From a candidate division FCPU426 bacterium (GTDB lineage: Bacteria; Oederibacteriota; Muellerivitia; Muellerivitales; Muellerivitaceae), in assembly GCA_963738405.1 (NCBI GenBank), contig CAVTWJ010000013.1:31766-95765 (forward strand): a stretch of DNA of 64,000 bases. The letters are read 5' to 3'. The stretch's first letter is position 1, and every line of letters begins with the position of its first letter. Shown piece after piece: positions 47,086 to 59,051 of the stretch. The translations under genes and the position numbers were made by a program. Under the pieces are notes generated by a model. It was not told where the DNA came from, did no database searches, and saw only the letters and a program-made list of their open reading frames with translations.

Positions 47086-49326
47086 ATGACCGACACGAAA
47101 ATCGTGCCTGCAGTTCATCTTCAAACTCTTCCTGGGGATGACATCCGGCAGATCCAGTGGCGGTTTTCAGATCGGTTCGACATTCAAATGCTAGTGCAGT
47201 CCGCCCGCTCGGTGGCACGAGGACCGGTGGCCCGCTTGGTTGCCGGGGGCGCCCGCAACAGCCATGAATGGACCGCTGAAAAAAACTCACTTTTAAAAGC
47301 CTACGACGATTCGGGCATCACGGCGGCTTTTCTTGATCCCGAACACGGCGGACTCTTCGCTGGCCCCAAAAATCTGGCTATGGCTCTGGTAGCTTTTGAG
47401 TTGGCCTGGGTGGATGGAGGAGCCGCTACCGCCTCCCTGGCCGGAAACTTAGGATTAGCCCCCATCCACGAATGCGGTACTCCCGATCAAGTCGCCAAGT
47501 ATATGCCCCAGGCTGCGCCCTCCAAGGAAGGCGATAAACGCAAGATGCTGCGCGCCGCTTTTGCACTGACCGAACCCATTCCCTATGTTGGTGTTGAAAC
47601 GGGACTCTTGTGCGGGAAGGTCCGGGTGGCCGAGTGGAAAGAGGGAAAGGAACCCCTGCTGGAGGTCGAAAAGCGGGGCCGGTTCATCACCAACATGGAT
47701 TACGCCAATCTGGTCACGGCTGCCGTCGATACGGACGACGACCGCATCAAAACCTCTTGCATGGTGATATTGGAAGAAGGCGATCCCGGTGTTTTCGACC
47801 GGGGCACTGCCACCAAGAAACTGGTCCACCAGCTTTCCTCCACCCGCGACCCTAATTTCCAAATGAAGGTGCCAGCTTCCCGCATCGTCGGCGGCTATAC
47901 CGTGAAAGACGGGGTGATCATTCCCAACTACACCCACAGCGAAGTGATTGAAGCGGTTTTCAAGCGCACCCGCGTGACCGTGGGGCTCATGACCGCCGCC
48001 AAGCTTCTTTCGGCGGTAGAACCGGTTATCCGTTACCATCGCCAGCGGTTCCGGGGCGGGGCCACGGCCAACCCGGGAACTCCGAGGTATGACTTAGGAA
48101 TTCAAACCAAGCAGGATGCCCTCCACCGGCTGGTGGATATCTGGGCTATGGGCGAGGCGGGGGCATCCATGGGTTTCGAAACCGAACGCCTCTATGACGA
48201 ACTGGACCCCCTCGAAAAGGAAAAGAATAAGGTCATGAAGGAGAGGGGCATTCAGGGTGCCCGGTCCGTAATGAAAGAAATGAACAAGGTTGAGGAACAG
48301 GCCGTGGAATATTTGCGCCTTTCCCGCATGCCCCGCGAGGGCAAGGTGAAAGAAAAAATGGAAACGCTCGAAAAGAATCCGTTGGTGAAGTTTTCCATCC
48401 TTGAATCGGCGGCCAATGTGCTTTGCCCAGCTACCAAGCTTTGGAATACCGGTCAGGGCGCCAACGCCCTGCGCGAGGCTGTCAGCCTCATGGGAGGCTA
48501 CGGCATCACCGAGGATTGCCCGGGATTTTTAGGCCACAAATGGATGGACGCCCAGTTGGAAGCAACCTATGAGGGCCCGGAAGCCGTCCAAAGGCGGCAG
48601 TTGTCCCTGACCATGACCCATCCGGTCTTTTTGGAGCAATTCAAACAGTGGATTATCGACATGAAGACCGTGGCCTCGGATCGGCCTGAAACAGGCGCTT
48701 GCGCCCTGGGAAGCGCCATGCAACTGTGGATATGGACGCTTGATCACTTGCAAAAAACAACCGACGCCGGCGGCGCCAAGCTGTACCACTCGAACCGACA
48801 GGGCGTCACATTCCCCATGGCGGACGCGCTTTGCTGGATTCTTTCCGCTCGCTCCCAGATCATGGATTTGTTGGAACTGGAAGAAAAGGGAAAACTTAAC
48901 CCGGCTCTCGCCGAATCCCTGCCCGGCACCTCGGCTTTTTTACGCGACCTTTGCCATGTCCAATCGGCCCGGGCTTCTGGCGAATCGGCCCGCATTTGCG
49001 CCGAATTGGTTTTTGGTTACAACGAGCACCCGCAATGGACCGAACGGGGCTGCCAGGCCTGTTTTAATGAAAACGAATTGGAGGAACTGGAGAGTTATAT
49101 TCCCGGTATTGAGGGGGGGGCTTTTGGCCACACCGATGTGGTGGAAAAGGACAACCGCCATCCACTGAAGCGCGGGCCCTGCGTGAAGATGTCAGGTTTG
49201 GAAACCTTCGTGGCCTTGCGCACCAAACTGGATGCTTGCCTAACGGGAAGCCGCCTTTCGAAGGACCGGGCCGCCGAATCGCTGGCCAAAGTTATGATTC
49301 CTGAAGCTCTCGATTATCCCCAATGA
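47086..49326 (+). CDS. Long-form acyl-CoA dehydrogenase
   Basis: PEHGG, AFALTEP, RFITN, SLMGGYG and TYEGPEAVQR, with a C-terminal extension. Confidence 0.92.
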   Translation: MTDTKIVPAVHLQTLPGDDIRQIQWRFSDRFDIQMLVQSARSVARGPVARLVAGGARNSHEWTAEKNSLLKAYDDSGITAAFLDPEHGGLFAGPKNLAMALVAFELAWVDGGAATASLAGNLGLAPIHECGTPDQVAKYMPQAAPSKEGDKRKMLRAAFALTEPIPYVGVETGLLCGKVRVAEWKEGKEPLLEVEKRGRFITNMDYANLVTAAVDTDDDRIKTSCMVILEEGDPGVFDRGTATKKLVHQLSSTRDPNFQMKVPASRIVGGYTVKDGVIIPNYTHSEVIEAVFKRTRVTVGLMTAAKLLSAVEPVIRYHRQRFRGGATANPGTPRYDLGIQTKQDALHRLVDIWAMGEAGASMGFETERLYDELDPLEKEKNKVMKERGIQGARSVMKEMNKVEEQAVEYLRLSRMPREGKVKEKMETLEKNPLVKFSILESAANVLCPATKLWNTGQGANALREAVSLMGGYGITEDCPGFLGHKWMDAQLEATYEGPEAVQRRQLSLTMTHPVFLEQFKQWIIDMKTVASDRPETGACALGSAMQLWIWTLDHLQKTTDAGGAKLYHSNRQGVTFPMADALCWILSARSQIMDLLELEEKGKLNPALAESLPGTSAFLRDLCHVQSARASGESARICAELVFGYNEHPQWTERGCQACFNENELEELESYIPGIEGGAFGHTDVVEKDNRHPLKRGPCVKMSGLETFVALRTKLDACLTGSRLSKDRAAESLAKVMIPEALDYPQ

Positions 49327-49330
49327 GGGG

Positions 49331-51196
49331 GTGGTTTTGAGTTCTTCACATCCTTCCACAAATGATCGCCAGACCCTGGAAGCCGATATCCTTTGCGTGG
49401 GTTTCGGACCCGCGACCGGGGGCTTTCTTACGACCCTGACGAAGGGAATGGTTAAGGAGGACGGCTCACCTGCATTTGAGAGCCGGGTTCATCCGGGAAA
49501 CCCTCTCCAGGTTCTTTGCTACGAAAGGGCAGATGACTTGGGATATGGGGTTTCCGGGGTTGTCACGCGGGGAAGGAGTTTGAAGGATTCCTTTCCGGCG
49601 GAGGAATTTAACCAGATTCCCTTTTTTTCCAAGGTCTCGGATGAAAAGGTTCTTTATCTCCTCGACCCCCACGGAGCTAGCCGCAGACCCGCACTGGTTA
49701 AGATCGCAGACTTCTTTTTGAAATGGCTGCCCCGGGTGAAGAAGGACCTGTCTTTCGAGATTCCTTTTCTTCCTGAATTTCTTCACAAAAAAGACGGGTT
49801 CATCTTTTCGCTTGGCCAGTTTAACCAATGGGTAGGGTCCCAGGTCATGATGTCAGGCCAGGCTCAGGTTTGGCCCGGCTCTCCCGTTTCCGAGGCCCTT
49901 ATCGAAAATGGCCGGGTCATGGGAGTTCGCTTATGCGACCAAGGGGTTGATAAGTCGGGAAACCCCTCCGAACACTATATGCCCGGCATGGATGTAAAGG
50001 CGTCCCTGACAGTGGTTGCGGATGGGCCCGTGGGACCCGTGGGTCGTCAGTTGGACCGCCGGTTTGGAATGCCGAAGGGACATACAACGGAAGAATGGGC
50101 CCTCGGTATGAAGGTGGTACTGGACCTGCCTGAAAATACGGAATTAAAACCGGGCATGGTATTACATACTTTGGGTTATCCCGAACCCGAAATTTTCGGA
50201 TTTCTCTACGTGTTTCCCGGAAACATCGCCGCAGGTGGCATTTTTGTTCCCTCGTGGTTTGACAACCCAGCCCGCACGGGTTACCTCTACCTTCAGCATT
50301 GGATGCGTCATCCCGCTCTTTGGAAACACCTTCAAAATGCCACCCTGCGGTCCTGGGGCGCCAAAAGTCTGCAGGAATCGGGCTTGAAGGGCGAACCTTA
50401 CTTGGTGGGCAACGGTTACGCACGAATCGGTGAAGGTTCCGGTTCAACCAATGTGCTGGCCAATTCGGGTGTTGACGAGGCCTGGGCCACGGGGGTTCAA
50501 CTAGCCGAGGCGGTCTTGGAACTATTAAACAAAAACAAACCCTTCAACCAGGATGATTTGGAGCAAACCTATGTCAAACGCCGCCGCGAAAGCTGGGTTT
50601 TTAAGGAAGGCCAGATGGCGGAAAGGGCCCGGGATGGGTTCCAGAAAGGTTTCGTGCAGGGCATCGTGGGCATGGCCATGGCGGGTTTTTCCGGTGGGTT
50701 CTTCAGTTGGCCCGGCAAGCCGCTGGCCCCCTATCAGCGTATCCCGAGCCTAGCGGAATATTACAAGGGCCGGATTACCCCCAAGGAAATCGAGGACTTG
50801 CGGAAAGAATGCCGGATTTCGGGGAAGACGCTTCATGAGGCCCTCATGGAAAGAGTGGGCTGGCCTGGGGTGCCCTTGGATGGGAAATTGCTGGTTTCCC
50901 AACAGGACGCCCTTTTGGTCGGCGGCAAGGTCCAGGCTCCAGCAGGCTTTTCGGATCACGTAATCATTTTAAAACCCAGCCTTTGCAATTTTTGTGAACG
51001 GAAGGTCTGTGTGGATATGTGCTCGGGACAAGCAATCGCCCTTTCCGAAGAAGGCGGTGTGGCCTTTGACCGGGAGAAATGCGTTCATTGCGGAGCATGT
51101 CTGTGGAATTGCGCCCAGGTGGTCGACAAACTTACGGGCCGCACCAATCTTGATTTCCGGGCAGGCGCCGGTGGGCTTCATTCGGCTGAAAACTAA
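49331..51196 (+). CDS. ETF:quinone oxidoreductase-like FixC-FixX fusion
   Basis: DILCVGFGPA, ADG and GFLY; C-terminal CNFCERKVCVDMC and KCVHCGAC ferredoxin motifs. Confidence 0.88.
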   Translation: MVLSSSHPSTNDRQTLEADILCVGFGPATGGFLTTLTKGMVKEDGSPAFESRVHPGNPLQVLCYERADDLGYGVSGVVTRGRSLKDSFPAEEFNQIPFFSKVSDEKVLYLLDPHGASRRPALVKIADFFLKWLPRVKKDLSFEIPFLPEFLHKKDGFIFSLGQFNQWVGSQVMMSGQAQVWPGSPVSEALIENGRVMGVRLCDQGVDKSGNPSEHYMPGMDVKASLTVVADGPVGPVGRQLDRRFGMPKGHTTEEWALGMKVVLDLPENTELKPGMVLHTLGYPEPEIFGFLYVFPGNIAAGGIFVPSWFDNPARTGYLYLQHWMRHPALWKHLQNATLRSWGAKSLQESGLKGEPYLVGNGYARIGEGSGSTNVLANSGVDEAWATGVQLAEAVLELLNKNKPFNQDDLEQTYVKRRRESWVFKEGQMAERARDGFQKGFVQGIVGMAMAGFSGGFFSWPGKPLAPYQRIPSLAEYYKGRITPKEIEDLRKECRISGKTLHEALMERVGWPGVPLDGKLLVSQQDALLVGGKVQAPAGFSDHVIILKPSLCNFCERKVCVDMCSGQAIALSEEGGVAFDREKCVHCGACLWNCAQVVDKLTGRTNLDFRAGAGGLHSAEN

Positions 51197-51251
51197 CGGC
51201 TCATCGAGGAAGTTTTTCTATTAAAAGTCCATTTCAGTTAAGGAGTCATTA

Positions 51252-52061
51252 ATGCCTTTATTTCACATCGTCGTATGCGGCGGGCTGGTGCCGGATCCTC
51301 TGCAGACCCTGGAACCTGTGACGAATCCTAACGGCCCAGCCTTGAAAAACGAGTCGATGCTTCCTTCTATTTTGGACCCCTGGGCTTCAAGTGCCCTCTA
51401 TGAGGCCGCCTCTCTGGCCAAGACCCATACGGGGTCGAAAGTTTGGCTGGTTTGCGCCGCCCCTAAACCTAAGATTCAGCAGGTCATGATGGCATTGGCC
51501 CAGCGGGCTTCTTTTGAACTCGTGCCGGTGGATGCCCCAGTCGGCGGCTTTACGGATAGCGCCGAATGCGCCGCGGTCCTTGGTGAAGCGGTGAACGCTA
51601 TCCCGGGCGTAGACAAAACCCACCTGCTCCTATTCGGCGGTTGGGAATCGGCCTCGCGTGGGGCGGGTTCCACCTTGGCCATGCTGGGTGAACGATTGGG
51701 ACTCACCGAGCAATTCCAGGGGGTGGATCAAGTCAAGGTAAACGCCGACGGAAGCCTTGAAATTCTAGAACGGGTGGAAGGGGGCAAACACCAAGTCTCC
51801 ATCCTATCCGCTCCCCCGGCCGTGTTGGGCTGGGCCACCGGAAGCCTGCCGGAGCCGCCGAATAACCCCCAGGTTGGGATGGCGAACATGAAAACCCTAA
51901 TGCCGGCTTTGCAAAGGGCCAAGACTGTCAAGTTGGCCGGTGAAGGGCTGACTTATCAATCTGTGGCCCTGCCCAAACTGAAAAGGGAAACCAAGATCGT
52001 TAAAGACATGCCGGTAGCTGAAATAGCCAAGGAAATCGTGGACTGGGTCAAAAAAAAGTAA
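51252..52061 (+). CDS. etfB: Electron transfer flavoprotein beta subunit (divergent)
   Basis: HIVVC..VPD, LDPW..ALYEA, LLFGG and ERVEGG; operon context. Confidence 0.82.
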   Translation: MPLFHIVVCGGLVPDPLQTLEPVTNPNGPALKNESMLPSILDPWASSALYEAASLAKTHTGSKVWLVCAAPKPKIQQVMMALAQRASFELVPVDAPVGGFTDSAECAAVLGEAVNAIPGVDKTHLLLFGGWESASRGAGSTLAMLGERLGLTEQFQGVDQVKVNADGSLEILERVEGGKHQVSILSAPPAVLGWATGSLPEPPNNPQVGMANMKTLMPALQRAKTVKLAGEGLTYQSVALPKLKRETKIVKDMPVAEIAKEIVDWVKKK

Positions 52062-52071
52062 GGATCGAAAA

Positions 52072-53085
52072 ATGGAGACCATTCTTTTATTAACCCCGGT
52101 GGACGGGAACGGAAAAGTGATCAAGGCTGGTTTGGAAGCGGCTACGGCGGCTAAAAACCTGGCCCAGGCCCTGGGCGGCGCAAAGTTAATGGCGGGAATT
52201 TTTGGGGCCAAAGTTGAATCGGCTGATTCCTTGGCCGGGATGGGATTCGAGAAAGCATTGTCGATCGAAGCGGATGCTCTTTTCCAACCTCGTTATGCTA
52301 CCGACGCGGCGGTTTGCGAGGTGCTAGCAAAGGTTTCAGGAGCCACGCTGGTAATGGCACCGGCGGTTTCCCGCATCCAACGGGTGATCTCCGGTGTGGC
52401 CCAAAGAGTGGGTGGCAAGATCGACACCCATTTGACAGAGCTGGCTGTGGATGGGGGATCGCCTCAGGCGACCCGCTGGTATTACCGACAGAGACTTTTC
52501 GCCAAACTGACGCGAATTCAAAGGCCATGGTTTCTCACGATTGAGCCCGGCACCCAAATGCCCCACGCCGGGTCCGGCACTTTGACTTTGGAAAAAATAA
52601 CAGTGAACCTGCCTGAAAGCAGGACGAAAGTGATCGGTGAAAAATCGCCGGGGTCAGGGGCCCAAACCATTCGGCCGGACGCGGATCTATTGTTTGTGGC
52701 AGGCGCAGGCTGGTGCAAAAAGCAGGGAGACGGGAAATTGCATGTTCCTGAGGCGGAAAAAACCATCCTTGGATTCCTTGAAAAGACCCAAGCTTCCCTG
52801 GGGGGCAGCAAGTCGGTTGTGGATCAGACCGGGGAGGGGGCCGTACTTTCCTTCATGAGCCACTTAAATCAGGTGGGCCAAACCGGTTCCACCCCTCGGC
52901 ACGCCAAAGGATTGGCTACCTGCTGTCATGGAGAGGAGCCCCATGTGGTTGGATGGCGTTTCGTTAATGAGCGCCGGGCGGTGAATTTGAACGCCAATTG
53001 CGGATGGGCCCAGGGCAAGGCTGATGTGCTTTATGTGGCCGACGCCTTCCAAGTTATGGCCAAGGTGAATGAGATGCTGGGTTAA
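52072..53085 (+). CDS. etfA: Electron transfer flavoprotein alpha subunit (divergent)
   Basis: LFVAGAG, LGGSKSVVD, QVGQTG and ADVLYVADAF; operon context. Confidence 0.85.
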   Translation: METILLLTPVDGNGKVIKAGLEAATAAKNLAQALGGAKLMAGIFGAKVESADSLAGMGFEKALSIEADALFQPRYATDAAVCEVLAKVSGATLVMAPAVSRIQRVISGVAQRVGGKIDTHLTELAVDGGSPQATRWYYRQRLFAKLTRIQRPWFLTIEPGTQMPHAGSGTLTLEKITVNLPESRTKVIGEKSPGSGAQTIRPDADLLFVAGAGWCKKQGDGKLHVPEAEKTILGFLEKTQASLGGSKSVVDQTGEGAVLSFMSHLNQVGQTGSTPRHAKGLATCCHGEEPHVVGWRFVNERRAVNLNANCGWAQGKADVLYVADAFQVMAKVNEMLG

Positions 53086-53465: not shown

Positions 53466-53969
53466 ATGAAGACGATTTTAGCTTTTCTATTATTTGGATT
53501 TTGCTGTTTTGCCCCCTTGGCTTGCCGGACTACTGGTCACCTATCACCCACACTGCCCTTTACGCCTACCCCGACAGTGAATACGACTCCTGTTTGTGGA
53601 TTTACTCTCGTTCCTGGAACAGTCAATTTACTTTCTCCAGGGCCCTATTATGTTATTCAAAATGCGGCTGAATGGTCTGCCGCCAACCCGAATGGCACTG
53701 GTGTAACCATGCCCCCGGTCAATTTTTCTAATCAGATGATCGTGGAATATTCTGAATGGATTCAATGGAATTGTGGGTGTTCCCCGATCCCTCCATCGAT
53801 TACTTCCGTTTGTGAGTATTCCGACCACATTGAAGTTGACTACCAAAATGGTGGGGTTGCCTGCCCACCTCCGGCTGCGTACACCTGCAACTCATTTTTT
53901 TCTAACTATTTCCAAGCCTTGGCAATTGTTCCCCTCTCGAATCTACCTGTTTCTTGGGTTAAGAACTAA
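53466..53969 (+). CDS. Cys-rich lipoprotein with a PrcB C-terminal-like domain
   Basis: AAGGAG RBS and lipobox PLAC; VIQNAAEW..PPVNFSNQMIV..ITSV..IEVDY. Confidence 0.7.
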   Translation: MKTILAFLLFGFCCFAPLACRTTGHLSPTLPFTPTPTVNTTPVCGFTLVPGTVNLLSPGPYYVIQNAAEWSAANPNGTGVTMPPVNFSNQMIVEYSEWIQWNCGCSPIPPSITSVCEYSDHIEVDYQNGGVACPPPAAYTCNSFFSNYFQALAIVPLSNLPVSWVKN

Positions 53970-54107: not shown

Positions 54108-54134
54108 GGTAACTTCGCCGTGCCAACCCCTCTA
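54108..54134 (+). promoter_or_regulatory. Putative ECF sigma autoregulated promoter GGTAACTTCG-N11-CCTCTA
   Basis: Lies 23 bp upstream of the sigma start codon; the same motif with the same spacing occurs at 59025-59051 on the minus strand. Confidence 0.75.
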
Positions 54135-54157
54135 TACATGGTTAAGGAGAAGGGCCC

Positions 54158-54718
54158 TTGGACTTCAATGACGACCAATGGCAGGCCTGGACCCAGTTAA
54201 TGAAACAGACCCAGGAAGGCGACCGGGAAGCTTACGAGAGCCTTTTGGCGGGCATCAGCCCCCTGGTCTTCAACTACGTGCGTAAAAGGGTTTTTAATTC
54301 CCAACACGTAGAGGATGTGTATCAGGAAGTGCTGATGACCTTTCATAAGGCCAGGCATACCTACCGCACCGAAATGCCATTCTCCCCCTGGTTTTTCGCG
54401 GTGATCCGAAACGCTATTTGGGCCGCCTTGCAAAAGAACCGCAAGATTGCCCAGAGTGAAGTGCTGATGGAGGACTTCCCTGACACGGCGGCTTTGGAGC
54501 CGGTGGAGGGCGGGGTAGACGACCGGCTTCACAGGGCTTTGGAATCGCTCCCCGAAGGGAATCGCCAAGCGGTGGAGATGCTGAAGTTCAAGGGGATGAG
54601 TGTGGAAACGGCGGCGAAGGAACTTGGGATTTCCAAGATCGCCCTCAAGGTGCGGGCGCACCGCGGATACGCCCTTTTAAGAAAGTTTTTAACGGAGCCA
54701 CAGGACAAACAAGAATGA
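54158..54718 (+). CDS. ECF RNA polymerase sigma factor (NrsF-associated type)
   Basis: GDREAYESLL, EDVYQEV..HKARHTY..PFSPWFFAVIRN and ALESLP..KVRAHRG; AAGGAG RBS. Confidence 0.93.
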   Translation: MDFNDDQWQAWTQLMKQTQEGDREAYESLLAGISPLVFNYVRKRVFNSQHVEDVYQEVLMTFHKARHTYRTEMPFSPWFFAVIRNAIWAALQKNRKIAQSEVLMEDFPDTAALEPVEGGVDDRLHRALESLPEGNRQAVEMLKFKGMSVETAAKELGISKIALKVRAHRGYALLRKFLTEPQDKQE

Positions 54719-55410
54719 GCGAATCGATGAACACCCATCCCTTAACCGAGAACCTCCCCCCCGCCCAACGGGCTTTGGTGGAAAGGCTTGCGGCCGAAGC
54801 CCGGCCCTACAGGCCTGTTCCTTCGGTGGGTCTCCAATGGCTGATTTGGCTGGGGTTTTCCCTGCTAGTCGTGATGGTTTCCCTTTTCTTGATTGGACCC
54901 CAGTTTGAAATTATGGAAAGGCTTTCCGAACTTTCCTCAGGCGGGTTCTTGGCTTTGGCTTTTGTCTTGTCGGCGGTAACGGCATGGATGGGTATCGCTT
55001 CCAGCATGCCCGATTACCGTCCCCATCCTGCGCCCCGCGTTATTGCCGCTCTCTTCGTACTTTTTCTTTTCAGCATGCCTTTCTTTTTCTTCGACCGGGA
55101 TACCCTTTCGCAGGTGTGGGCCAACAATATGGAAGATGGGTGGTTTTGCGTCAGGACGGTCGTGCTGGTAGCCTTTCCATCGTGGGTGATGCTGGGCTGG
55201 ATGGTTTCCCGCAACGCTTCTTTCCATCCCGGATGGACCGGGGCCTGGCTGGGGGTTTCGGCCTTTCTCTTGGGAACGGGAACCATACAACTGCACTGCG
55301 CCCATTGGGAAACATGCCACATGCTGGTGGATCACCTGCTTCCCATGCTGGTTTTGATTTTCCTGCCTATTTGGATTGGGAGTTACTGGTTCTCGCGGTG
55401 GAGAAAGTAG
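54715..55410 (+). CDS. nrsF: NrsF/DUF1109-family membrane anti-sigma factor
   Basis: LVERLAAEARP, about six TM segments and the conserved Cys in WFC and LHC; ATGA coupling to the sigma gene. Confidence 0.8.
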   Translation: MSESMNTHPLTENLPPAQRALVERLAAEARPYRPVPSVGLQWLIWLGFSLLVVMVSLFLIGPQFEIMERLSELSSGGFLALAFVLSAVTAWMGIASSMPDYRPHPAPRVIAALFVLFLFSMPFFFFDRDTLSQVWANNMEDGWFCVRTVVLVAFPSWVMLGWMVSRNASFHPGWTGAWLGVSAFLLGTGTIQLHCAHWETCHMLVDHLLPMLVLIFLPIWIGSYWFSRWRK

Positions 55411-55424
55411 TTCATTCGGATTCT

Positions 55425-56420
55425 CTATTTCCCGTAAACATCTTCTCGCTTTAGCACTCCGTCGTGGATGATGGTCGAGTCCAGGTTTTTGGCGTCTACC
55501 GCGGCGGGTGTTAAAAGCACGGCCTTGACGGTCTGTTGGCCGTTAGGCAATTCAACGAATTGGCAGTCAAAGGTGGTGGCCTTGCGGGCCAGTTTGGCGG
55601 CCAAATATACAGTTTCCTCGGCTAGTCTTTGGGGCGGATGGTAAATTGTCACTGTCTGGGTGCCGGATACGATCCGACGGCAGGTGGCAAGGTCCTCCCC
55701 CATTCCCGCAACGGCTACTTTTCCTGAAAGTTTCTTTATTTCCAGGGCTTGAAGAGCCATCTCGGCGAGGGAATGGTTTGAAGTTAGAATCGCGTCCACC
55801 TTGCTTTCTTTCCCCTCAAGAAAACGATTTATACTTTTCGCGGCTTCCATGGTGTCAGATCCCCCGGCAATGGAAGCGGATATTTGAATATCGCCACGGT
55901 CGATGAGGGGCTGAAGGACCCTCATCCATCCTTCTTGGATATTCTTGTAAACCAAATCATCGTCGTCCCCGCCAAAGAAAACGTAGTGCCCCTTGGGAAC
56001 TTTATTCACTATCGCCTGGGCTTGTAATTCCCCCTCCTTTAACCAATTGAAGTCGATGAAGTAATCCAAAAAACTATCTGGAATCGCTTGGTCCAGGGCG
56101 ATCACCTTGATGCCTGATTGATGGGCGGCGGCCACCAGGGGTCCGGCCTTGAAAGGATCACAGGGAATCACCACCAAGACTTGAATTCCCTTCTGCGTCA
56201 AATCTTTTACTTGGTTTTCTTGGGCAACTGGGTCATCGCTGGCGTCTTTAAGAAGTAGATCCGCGTTGGTTTCGTCCGACTCGTCCCGCATGCTTTTAAG
56301 GAAAATTTCCCTGCCCTGGGTATGGTCAATGGAGAGGCCGATCTTGACCTTGGGGCCGAGGTGTCCCCATCCCGTTAGAAACAGGAGGGCGAGGCATAGA
56401 AAGGGAATTCTGAATCGCAT
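55425..56420 (-). CDS. XylF/ChvE-type sugar ABC substrate-binding protein
   Basis: KIGLSID, QENQVKDL..GIQVLVVIP, LQPLIDRGDI, RIVSGTQTVTIY and NLDSTIIHDG. Confidence 0.85.
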   Translation of the reverse strand: MRFRIPFLCLALLFLTGWGHLGPKVKIGLSIDHTQGREIFLKSMRDESDETNADLLLKDASDDPVAQENQVKDLTQKGIQVLVVIPCDPFKAGPLVAAAHQSGIKVIALDQAIPDSFLDYFIDFNWLKEGELQAQAIVNKVPKGHYVFFGGDDDDLVYKNIQEGWMRVLQPLIDRGDIQISASIAGGSDTMEAAKSINRFLEGKESKVDAILTSNHSLAEMALQALEIKKLSGKVAVAGMGEDLATCRRIVSGTQTVTIYHPPQRLAEETVYLAAKLARKATTFDCQFVELPNGQQTVKAVLLTPAAVDAKNLDSTIIHDGVLKREDVYGK

Positions 56421-56605
56421 GGATCCTCTTAATTCGAAAGAAATGTTCAACCTCATTGATTATAGGAAGGTGTTGGGAATGGTTTCATGTAAAAAGAGAC
56501 CTTGGGCGGGTTGCGGAGCTGTCCAATCGGGGTTAAAGTTTGGCAGTTGAGTGGATTTAAGCTCAAAGGAGAACTCCCCTGAAGACGACGCTTAACGCCC
56601 GGCCC

Positions 56606-57367
56606 TTGTTTTCTACTGGTTTCAGGTCGGTTTTCTCCCTTTGCTTGATCCTTTGGGGAGCCGCGCTGATGCCCCGCCCCCTTTTCGCGCAGCAGGAAGA
56701 TGCTGGCTTGATTCGAACCCTCGAAACCGATTCGGCATCGATTGAAAATAACTACTACCTTCTTGCTTCCTTCGACAACGACACCTCTCCCTACCACTAT
56801 CAATATTTGTATGGAGAAGGGGTTTTTACTCTGGGTAAGGATTTGGGAGTGGAAGCCGATTTTCCGAGCTTTATTACTTGGTCGCCTCTGGGAAGATATC
56901 CGGCAGTTTTGGGCCCCATTGGGCTTTATCTGCGTTACGAAGCCTACCATTTCGGGGGCTGGAGCAGTGAAGAGGCGGGAATCTTCTCAATTGAGGCTGG
57001 AGGGGCCTACGGTATCACCAATAAAACCTTTCCCTATGTGGGAAGCAGTTGGACGATTGAGGCGCTGGGCGGTTACCGGATCGGGAAGCTTTTCGCTCAG
57101 GGGGAATATTGTTTCCAGGGCGGGATTGACCCCAAGGTTCCAAGTGAGTTTCAGGCCAACACGGGCTTGGGTTACAGCGTGGGATCGAATTGGTATATCC
57201 AGGTTGAAGCGGATTTTACTGATATTACGGCGCCTTTTACCGATTCTTCCTGGACCTTTATTCCCCAAATCGCCTTTCAGCCCGATGAATGGCTGTTCGA
57301 GCTGGGGGAAGCGCTCAACGAAACACCGGCAGGCGTGACGGAAGTGATGGTTGCTAGGGCTTTTTAA
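56606..57367 (+). CDS. Predicted outer-membrane beta-barrel protein
   Basis: Signal peptide LFA|Q, amphipathic aromatic-rich strands and a C-terminal Phe. Confidence 0.65.
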   Translation: MFSTGFRSVFSLCLILWGAALMPRPLFAQQEDAGLIRTLETDSASIENNYYLLASFDNDTSPYHYQYLYGEGVFTLGKDLGVEADFPSFITWSPLGRYPAVLGPIGLYLRYEAYHFGGWSSEEAGIFSIEAGGAYGITNKTFPYVGSSWTIEALGGYRIGKLFAQGEYCFQGGIDPKVPSEFQANTGLGYSVGSNWYIQVEADFTDITAPFTDSSWTFIPQIAFQPDEWLFELGEALNETPAGVTEVMVARAF

Positions 57368-57375
57368 TTCACACC

Positions 57376-58494
57376 TTAATAGTATAAATAAGCGTCCGCT
57401 ACGACCATGTCTTCCACAGCTCCCAACTGGGTATAGTTAACGGAGGATGGATTGGGCGCGGTCCGGGAAAGATCCAGCTGGAACTTCAGGTTGTGGACTG
57501 GATAACAACGGAAACTGACCACATGGCGGAATCCATCCGCCGCATTGATGCCCATCGAGTCCCAAAACCATTCGGTGGCCAATCGAAGGTAGCAGTCGTA
57601 TCCCAGATCGCCCTCGATGCTTAAATGATAAGCCTGGATGTTGTTCTGGGAAGAAGCCGTAAGCCCGTCGTAGCCGGTGTCAAATTCCGCCAGCAAAACG
57701 ATGGGCCAAACCCTGCCCCAGCCATAAGCGCCGTATCGGACGGACTTGTTGACCAAATCCAAGTTGAGTCCGTAAAGGGACCCGGCTAGGGCCCAGCCGT
57801 CTCCCTGGAACCCGCCCTTGCCGGAGAAGGCCTTTTCCGAAGTGGTGGGGTCGCCATTGAAAAACGCGAAATTCAAGAAGGCGGGGTCGGTGAAAAAGCC
57901 TCCCTCCAAACCTTCCGCTGGGTTCTCGTCAAAGCCAAAACCTAAGGGAGTTCGGACCAAGCTATTGTCATCTGCTAGTTCCAAACCGTAGGGAACCGTG
58001 AACTTGCCCAGTTTTACATAGCCGCCCGCCGGAAGGTTATTCAACAAAAGGTACATTTCTTTGGTGGAATAATCATCGAGTCGGTAGGTCAAGACTCCCA
58101 TTAGGTCTTGATTGACCTTCACCCCGATCTCAAGGGCCTGTCGGCCCCCATTGGGAACGTCAGGTGCTGGGCTTGGGCCGCTCAAAAAGCCATTTACGTT
58201 CGTGACGGGTTTGGGATAAAAGGTCTCGAAGTAACTTTCGTGAATATCCAACCCGACGGAAATCGAAACGGGAATGGCGTTGTGGGCTCCCTGGGCGGCG
58301 TTTTCCAGGCCTTCCCAATCGAACGTCGCCAGTTGATTGCCGTAATTTTTGCCGAATCCGTTGCGGAGCCATCCTCCGGTTTTGTTCATGTGGCAGGCGT
58401 TGCAGTTAACCCCTTTCCAAGCGGCGAAGTAGGGTTCAGTCCGTCCGAAACAGGGAAGCAACAACAGGCAAAATAAAGACATCTTCAATTTCAT
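57376..58494 (-). CDS. Monoheme cytochrome c-porin fusion (Cyc2-like architecture)
   Basis: Signal peptide, then EPYFAAWKGVNCNACH..LRNGFGKNY, followed by barrel strands (YVKLGKFTVPYG, LKFQLD) and an aromatic terminus AYLYY; CAGGAG RBS. Confidence 0.75.
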   Translation of the reverse strand: MKLKMSLFCLLLLPCFGRTEPYFAAWKGVNCNACHMNKTGGWLRNGFGKNYGNQLATFDWEGLENAAQGAHNAIPVSISVGLDIHESYFETFYPKPVTNVNGFLSGPSPAPDVPNGGRQALEIGVKVNQDLMGVLTYRLDDYSTKEMYLLLNNLPAGGYVKLGKFTVPYGLELADDNSLVRTPLGFGFDENPAEGLEGGFFTDPAFLNFAFFNGDPTTSEKAFSGKGGFQGDGWALAGSLYGLNLDLVNKSVRYGAYGWGRVWPIVLLAEFDTGYDGLTASSQNNIQAYHLSIEGDLGYDCYLRLATEWFWDSMGINAADGFRHVVSFRCYPVHNLKFQLDLSRTAPNPSSVNYTQLGAVEDMVVADAYLYY

Positions 58495-58525
58495 AATGAT
58501 CTCCTGAAATTAAGTATTGTTTCGG

Positions 58526-58984
58526 CTAATTGACCTGGATGGTTCCGACCATGGCCCCCGTACAGGAATTTCCACAGGTTCCGTTGCCACAGGAAGAATG
58601 GACCCCGCAATGGAAGGGGTAGATCCCTGTGCTGTTAAAGGTTACGGGGAAAGGAAAGGTCGTGTTTCCAGTGACCATGCAGGTTCCAGAACCATTATCG
58701 ACATTGAGGGGATGGCTGGCTGAATTGGTGTTGTCCCAAAGGACCGATTCCCCGTGTGTGATGGTAATTGGAGTGCTGGGGCTTATAGCGGTCGAGGAAC
58801 CTGCGAGCGCGTAATGGGGCCCCGCAATGACGCTGATGGTCACCGAGGCACCGGATGGGTTGCCTCCGCCGCCACCTCCGCCATAACCACCGTTGGAATA
58901 GCCATCTGTGGAACTATGCGTGGTACAGGCCAAGAAGGTTACGAGTGTCAAAGTGAACAGTAAGAAAAGCAGAGAATTTTTCAT
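58526..58984 (-). CDS. Cupredoxin (plastocyanin-like, type-1 Cu) lipoprotein
   Basis: Lipobox FLAC; ITITHGESVLWDN..SHPL and TFNSTGIYPFHCGVH...MVGTIQVN give His/Cys/His/Met ligands. Confidence 0.85.
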   Translation of the reverse strand: MKNSLLFLLFTLTLVTFLACTTHSSTDGYSNGGYGGGGGGGNPSGASVTISVIAGPHYALAGSSTAISPSTPITITHGESVLWDNTNSASHPLNVDNGSGTCMVTGNTTFPFPVTFNSTGIYPFHCGVHSSCGNGTCGNSCTGAMVGTIQVN

Positions 58985-59024
58985 TTTTCGTCTCCCCCTT
59001 TTTCAACCGCATTCATAAAATGAC

Positions 59025-59051
59025 TAGAGGTTAGGGGAGGACGAAGTTACC
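59025..59051 (-). promoter_or_regulatory. Putative ECF-dependent promoter GGTAACTTCG-N11-CCTCTA
   Basis: The minus strand reads GGTAACTTCGTCCTCCCCTAACCTCTA, 40 bp upstream of the cupredoxin start. Confidence 0.75.

Follow-up and report, generated by a model that had tools for sequence, protein, structure and literature searches.

In a stretch of 64,000 nucleotides from a candidate division FCPU426 bacterium (phylum Oederibacteriota, family Muellerivitaceae; assembly GCA_963738405.1, contig CAVTWJ010000013.1, positions 31,766 to 95,765), hereafter the window, we identified a two-gene operon encoding a cupredoxin lipoprotein and a predicted outer-membrane porin with a fused monoheme cytochrome domain. 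Judged by its sequence, this heme-porin is built on the plan of the cytochrome-porin Cyc2, with which its heme motif has a common ancestry, but it is not a Cyc2 by the published definition and falls into a large sister family that has no annotation. We consider it very likely that this protein is an outer-membrane barrel that bears heme and is distinct from Cyc2. New features are a conserved predicted promoter of the extracytoplasmic function (ECF) type, which links the operon, a neighboring sigma factor/NrsF gene pair and unlinked cupredoxin genes, and a candidate relocation of the distal heme histidine.

The porin gene lies 31 bp downstream of the cupredoxin gene on the minus strand, each gene is preceded by a ribosome-binding site, and the two appear to be co-transcribed. 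Neither protein reached a cut-off in Pfam or NCBIfam, and a scan for sigma-70 promoters and terminators returned signal at shuffle level only. The GC content of the operon (53–54%) equals that of the window and gives no indication of horizontal arrival.

The CxxCH motif occurs once in the porin, at the N terminus after a signal peptide whose cleavage position was taken from aligned homologs. A word search returned 73 homologs, of which 64 that are near full length were aligned with the query. The motif is kept in 64 of 65 close homologs, the lone exception being N-truncated, and a wide search found it at the N terminus of 137 of 149 sequences; the porin is predicted to bind one covalent heme. 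The AlphaFold model has 16 strands (residues 77–371; mean predicted local distance difference test score, pLDDT, 78.4), and its top structural match is OprP (Foldseek E value 3.1e-12; Z score 25.0, root-mean-square deviation [rmsd] 2.3, 278 residues aligned). An exhaustive search collected 400 representatives at an E value of 0.001 or less and 107 at 1e-10. Two of ten family members that were looked up carry names, as hypothetical proteins of Ignavibacteria and Pseudomonadota, no names are attached to the Atlas clusters of the family, and none of 42 distant members exceeds any NCBIfam cut-off. A search against the sequences of solved structures gave no match, nor did a search of plasmids with a distant member. 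In a tree of 38 rows, the 19 sequences from this lineage form a single branch with full support.

Excerpts of the literature describe Cyc2 as a predicted 16-strand OprP/OprO-like porin with one CxxCH, include AxPxFAR[Q/K][T/Y] ahead of CxxCH in its definition, and flag divergent homologs as functionally uncertain (PMC8406198). The porin resembles the Cyc2 proteins compared here (Acidithiobacillus ferrooxidans Cyc2, Mariprofundus Cyc2PV-1, Ghiorsea Cyc2TAG1_1, and Leptospirillum Cyt572) in its signal peptide, single N-terminal CxxCH, predicted 16-strand OprP/OprO-like barrel and redox-carrier neighbors, and with 372 amino acids (aa) it passes the FeGenie length filter for Cyc2 (at least 365 aa). 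However, neither PxFAR[Q/K][T/Y] ahead of CxxCH nor PxL four residues past it is present in any of the 137 heme-bearing homologs; in the porin, the heme motif is instead preceded by EPY-x-A and followed by x-N-x-TGG-x-x-R. The motif test itself works, as separate paralogs in related genomes show the full Cyc2 motif in 9 of 14 cases and PxL in all 14; these motif-bearing Cyc2 proteins are also longer (420–510 aa). HHalign aligns the porin family with motif-bearing Cyc2 over just 45–51 N-terminal columns comprising the signal peptide and heme motif (probability 93–96%). Because this homology is limited to the heme-motif region and the signature motifs are absent, we place the porin on the Cyc2 plan but outside Cyc2. 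It further differs from Cyc2 in its predicted control by a stress sigma factor and in the lack of an oxidase operon, whereas from the anion-selective porins OprP and OprO, which have the same fold (12–16% identity), it differs by the fused heme domain. We found no paper on this porin family or on a SigF-linked cytochrome-porin in a search of mainly open-access literature, with the supplementary Cyc2 alignments (PMC8406198 and PMC10654088), where distant members might occur, outside its range.

Two further cytochrome-porin families occur in this lineage. A wide porin profile gave weak N-terminal matches in related genomes, and the 20 such loci that were fetched contain 14 PxL proteins, mostly beside c-type cytochromes (nine with the full Cyc2 motif and five with a one-residue variant), as well as seven proteins of a third family. 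Motif-bearing Cyc2 genes with c-type cytochrome neighbors (loci L112–L125) are present in 17 of the 30 genomes of this polysaccharide-degrading family, including all three congeners and 16 of the 27 genomes with the porin described here (a weak match in G025 was left out of this tally); none was found in the assembly of this genome. The literature searched contained no report of an iron oxidation potential for this lineage. Members of the third family (L126–L131 and L114) have PxFARMY ahead of CxxCH and are followed by a gene for a small cytochrome c; they align with the porin family over 333 HHalign columns.

Conservation within the barrel points to two candidate sites. Position 85 on strand 1 is His in all 65 close sequences, with Phe or Tyr at position 369 on strand 16 in 63 of them, whereas the 94 distant members mostly have His at position 369 (89 members) and Arg at position 85 (87 members). 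The sister-family genome has Tyr85 and His369, and in four relatives both positions are occupied by His. Strands 1 and 16 meet where the barrel closes, and this alternation suggests that the heme-ligating His has moved between adjacent strands. Available portions of the Cyc2 literature state that electron paramagnetic resonance of one Cyc2 indicates two axial heme ligands (PMC13692758), that a model of another has one axial ligand only, and that no Cyc2 structure has been solved (PMC13741234). On strand 12, His290 is invariant among the aligned close homologs and rare in distant ones (6 of 94); together with the flanking conserved carboxylates Glu270, Asp272 and Glu308 it may form a metal site in the lumen.

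The upstream gene encodes a predicted lipoprotein in which a Gly-rich linker of 25 residues connects the lipobox to a cupredoxin domain. The type-1 ligands His91, Cys126, His129 and Met145 are invariant in all 17 aligned domains, as are two of four extra Cys residues, and the protein would accordingly be expected from sequence and model to bind type-1 copper. The model (pLDDT 94.5) matches plastocyanin (Z score 9.3, rmsd 2.2, 85 residues aligned) and pseudoazurin (E value 3e-4). Among curated families including Copper-bind, plastocyanin, amicyanin and halocyanin, there was no Pfam match and the best NCBIfam E value was 0.005, far below the cut-off. The protein shares the fold and the His-Cys-His-Met ligand set of rusticyanin, plastocyanin and pseudoazurin, but members of its family are lipid-anchored or stalked, and the loop from the second His to Met, which has 15 residues here and 13–18 in all 13 family members and includes extra Cys, compares with 4 residues in rusticyanin. 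A first-pass annotation of this DNA, made from the letters alone, had described a type-1 copper lipoprotein in a two-gene operon with a protein carrying a single CxxCH behind its signal peptide and a predicted beta-barrel, and had taken the latter for a divergent Cyc2-like family; all of these descriptions hold in the analyses above, with copper binding and co-transcription as predictions.

The cupredoxin family is present in 25 of 30 genomes of the bacterial family, in up to seven copies each; elsewhere in the phylum it occurs in 2 of 29 genomes. In many copies the domain is carried on a Thr-rich stalk, and some of these also have a signal peptide and a FlgD-Ig/secretion-type tail: those at L132–L137, L074, L077 and L096 are secreted cupredoxins on stalks of 500–800 residues with the tail type that is also seen on cellulases. 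This genome (G000 in locus labels) encodes a 557-aa lipoprotein with a Thr-rich stalk of about 430 residues and a C-terminal cupredoxin of the operon's family (G000:C21:57892-59565, minus strand, L103), which is preceded by the same promoter as the operon.

To describe the genomic context we surveyed 27 porin loci with up to 8 kb per side, several of which were ended by contig ends. One copy of the porin gene is present in each of 25 of the 30 family genomes and in the one sister-family genome, and no ortholog was found in the 29 other genomes of the phylum; a weak 204-aa match in G040 was left out as non-orthologous, and two fragments in G030 were counted as one. The link between barrel and cupredoxin is looser than the dedicated pair that the first-pass annotation had envisaged: the gene directly upstream of the porin encodes a cupredoxin in 7 of the 27 loci, and in 4 others the product is a monoheme cytochrome c lipoprotein. 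Either carrier lies within the fetched flanks in 18 genomes and neither does in 9. This cupredoxin family is encoded in 25 of the 27 porin genomes; in the other two, the neighbor of the porin is the cytochrome lipoprotein. Porin, cupredoxin and NrsF are missing together from three genomes that are 85–97% complete. In none of the 27 loci does the porin cluster with oxidase or bc genes.

The operon is probably under the control of the neighboring SigF-type sigma factor. In the loci, the pattern GTAAC-N19-TA[G/T]TCA has 14 matches with a spacer of 19 and 0–4 with other spacers. The family and sister-family genomes contain 76 exact matches. Thirteen of them have a cupredoxin gene within 1.5 kb downstream, and 8 of these 13 are on contigs outside the pattern definition, compared with an expectation of 0.05 from a uniform model blind to intergenic bias. 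A matrix trained on 12 sites, all from other genomes, was used to score 2644 upstream regions in this genome: the two cupredoxin lipoprotein genes, including the one in this operon, rank 1 and 2, a Cys-motif outer-membrane gene ranks 4, a two-cupredoxin-plus-porin operon ranks 7, and the sigma gene ranks 10. Glutathione peroxidase (GPx) genes have the motif ahead of them as well, in three genomes that belong to a single genus (3 of 3 such sites checked); in this genome, no promoter of this type lies within 300 bases upstream of the GPx gene. No exact site lies directly upstream of any of 21 other cytochrome-porin genes, and the promoter is found directly upstream in none of the 14 fetched motif-bearing Cyc2 loci. 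The gene ranked 4 (G000:C3:1243-2220, minus strand, L098) encodes an unannotated outer-membrane-like protein with an N-terminal CxxCxC and has a small His/Cys-motif gene ahead of it; we presume from resemblance that it is copper related. At G000:C9:17165-19735 (plus strand, L099), genes for two cupredoxin-domain proteins and then a porin-like protein follow a promoter variant.

Like the SigF/NrsF regulons of Caulobacter and Azospira, this system combines an ECF sigma factor and NrsF (with two Cys 50 residues apart), a GTAAC -35 element, and a small nearby regulon of envelope proteins; its targets would be the heme-porin, cupredoxins and cytochrome lipoproteins, in place of bufferins or YedYZ/MrpX. 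In other bacteria, such systems respond to Cr/Cd, chlorite and Cu, according to excerpts of three reports on SigF/NrsF (PMC3511200, PMC4436054, PMC11626156). The promoter common to the operon, the sigma/NrsF pair and the unlinked cupredoxin genes suggests a copper/oxidant stress regulon, and its presence together with a sigma/NrsF pair 2–3 kb away favors stress or detoxification over energy metabolism. Of the two roles named earlier for the operon, electron transfer or copper/metal detoxification, the latter is thus favored by features that had escaped the first-pass annotation.

Coordinates of the operon, its predicted control elements and neighboring genes in the window
Feature	Position	Strand	Description
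Heme-porin gene	57376..58494	-	372 aa; monoheme cytochrome c fused to predicted 16-strand OprP-like porin; Cyc2 sister family
Cupredoxin gene	58526..58984	-	152-aa lipoprotein; lipobox Cys20, Gly-rich linker, type-1 ligands
CxxCH heme-attachment motif	58390..58404	-	Cys31-Cys34-His35; 12 residues past likely signal cleavage
His85, barrel strand 1	58240..58242	-	Candidate distal heme ligand
His290, strand 12	57625..57627	-	Candidate lumen metal site with Glu270/Asp272/Glu308, suggested by strand alternation
Predicted ECF-sigma promoter	59021..59050	-	GTAAC-N19-TAGTCA ahead of the two-gene operon
Promoter variant	54109..54138	+	Ahead of sigma gene; predicted autoregulation
ECF sigma factor gene	54158..54718	+	Pfam Sigma70_r2/r4_2; predicted operon regulator; in porin locus 11/27
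NrsF-type anti-sigma gene	54715..55410	+	PF06532, E value 4.7e-16; Cys145, Cys195, Cys201 kept in 11/11; in 11/27 loci
Periplasmic sugar-binding protein gene	55425..56456	-	Conserved neighbor, 11/27 loci
Unannotated 253-aa protein gene	56606..57367	+	Convergent with porin gene; 10/27 loci; no Pfam cut-off reached

Judged by eye, the 253-aa neighbor is probably a small outer-membrane barrel. An unannotated gene for a Cys-rich lipoprotein-like protein (window 53466-53969) lies directly upstream of the sigma gene, and genes for an acyl-CoA dehydrogenase, an electron-transfer flavoprotein (ETF)-quinone oxidoreductase-like protein and ETF form one run at 47086-53085. In nine of the 27 genomes (L072, L073, L078, L080, L082, L091–L093, L096), a polysaccharide lyase 14-domain gene follows the porin gene; the genes often found upstream of this lyase gene are presumably YfhO-like membrane genes.

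The genome assembly comprises 3.18 Mb in 23 contigs and is 90.7% complete. ResB and CcsA genes, which belong to system II of cytochrome c maturation, stand side by side, in agreement with the earlier annotation. Respiratory genes include an aa3-type oxidase, a bd oxidase and a cytochrome b/octaheme complex, the last as cytochrome b genes followed by the gene for a 933-aa octaheme protein at G000:C9:227374-232135, an alternative bc-type complex; we take a second heme-copper protein to be a quinol nitric oxide reductase. Neither a multicopper oxidase nor RuBisCO was found in this 91% complete genome. GH5 and GH9 glycoside hydrolase genes within the window, with no RuBisCO found, agree with the earlier view of the host as a polysaccharide degrader rather than a lithotroph. 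Electron supply to a lytic polysaccharide monooxygenase was considered and dropped, no AA10 gene being found in the same genome.

We tentatively favor a role of the operon as a stress-induced protective oxidase at the outer membrane that oxidizes Cu(I)/Fe(II), although we consider it somewhat less than an even chance. The neighboring SigF/NrsF-type regulator would likely switch on the operon, system II would attach one heme to the porin, and the short heme domain would plug the periplasmic mouth of the barrel with His85 as the sixth ligand. A metal ion bound at His290 and the nearby carboxylates would donate an electron to the heme, from which a tethered one-electron carrier, the cupredoxin here and a monoheme cytochrome c in some relatives, would pass it to the bc-type complex or the aa3-type oxidase and O2. 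Such a conduit would serve to clear Fenton-active, membrane-permeant ions, elsewhere the task of a multicopper oxidase. Support comes from the two unrelated carrier types (7 cupredoxins, 4 cytochromes c) that share the slot directly upstream, from the separate motif-bearing Cyc2 with its own cytochromes in 16 of 27 genomes, without the promoter directly upstream in 14 of 14 fetched loci, and from the aa3-type and bd oxidases and the cytochrome b/octaheme complex in a genome where no multicopper oxidase was found. No answer came from modeling the porin, heme and cupredoxin as a complex (score 0.02, mark 0.32), and the result was not used as evidence.

Several observations weigh against the protective oxidase. 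Its substrate, the direction of electron flow and the cupredoxin-porin partnership are proposals drawn from sequences and models. The heme region of the porin (residues 11–62) has a pLDDT below 50 in the heme-free model, a site of His and carboxylates fits Fe(II) better than Cu(I), and a stalked cupredoxin domain may sit outside the cell, away from the periplasmic heme. The nine loci with neither carrier in their flanks also count here, and the related genomes are not independent samples. As for its regulation, a strong promoter site is present at about 12 of the 27 porin operons and missing from about 15. The pattern was first read from these same loci, the exact pattern is not commoner genome-wide than a reversed control, and the -35 element matches the GTAACC of the Caulobacter SigF promoter (GTAACC-N16-CGAA in the part of the literature consulted) but the -10 element differs; the sigma assignment therefore rests on position and linkage.

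Three other explanations have to be weighed against the protective oxidase. The heme-porin may instead be an outward conduit under oxidant stress, from the quinol pool through the bc-type complex and heme-porin to surface cupredoxins or cytochromes, with oxidants, Cu(II), Fe(III) or humic quinones as acceptors outside the cell. We think this unlikely even though at least eight complete genes of relatives combine a cupredoxin, a Thr-rich stalk and a FlgD-Ig/secretion-type tail, a tail type also found on glycoside hydrolases of this organism, which further has the 557-aa stalked lipoprotein under the same promoter and two PorV-family matches. Published excerpts likewise place Cyc2 homologs in humic-lake bacteria that are not known iron oxidizers (PMC6344600) and allow a Cyc2 heme potential as low as -130 mV (PMC13692758). 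However, the cupredoxin of this operon has a linker of just 25 residues, the surface location is hypothetical, and without a shuttle a single heme cannot bridge the barrel to reach a partner outside. In its fullest form, which we hold to be similarly doubtful, this conduit would be a stress-induced redox fringe in which the Cyc2 sister family wires the respiratory chain to disulfide-stapled, Thr-stalked surface cupredoxins and cytochromes; if true, the barrel wall would provide the sixth ligand, the carriers would be exported like cellulases, and a polysaccharide degrader would control copper and oxidant chemistry at its own surface.

Alternatively, the two proteins could be co-regulated but independent parts, with cupredoxins as CopI-like copper sinks or chaperones and the heme-porin as a gated channel, sensor or metal-uptake reductase. 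Up to seven cupredoxin copies per genome, most of them unlinked to the single porin, and four searched genomes with cupredoxins and no porin point in this direction, as does the Cys-rich loop, which could hold an extra metal; CopI is described in part of one source as a copper-induced plastocyanin-like resistance protein (PMC7558416). A copper sink gives no reason, however, why two unrelated one-electron carriers take the upstream slot in 11 of 27 loci, and this explanation seems improbable to us. An energy-yielding Fe(II) oxidase that supplements heterotrophic growth, as in the Cyc2-rusticyanin system, is the least probable of the three. It would fit the shared architecture, the homology of the heme motif to that of motif-bearing Cyc2 (HHalign 96%), the conserved lumen carboxylates, and the presence of oxidases in an assembly where no motif-bearing Cyc2 was found. 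Against it stand the missing Cyc2 motifs in 137 of 137 homologs, the lack of clustering with oxidase or bc genes, the stress-sigma promoter, the separate motif-bearing Cyc2 in all three congeners, and the RuBisCO that was not found.

Cyc2 is a widely used marker for iron oxidation by microbes, and present Cyc2 filters discard the large family named here. The lineage holds three different cytochrome-porins, of which the one described here is tied to a stress regulator and not to a respiratory operon. For the question of how heme is held in such barrels, mutagenesis has a specific target in His85 versus the strand-16 His, and the porin itself provides a concrete test case for a protective, non-energy role of monoheme cytochrome-porins.
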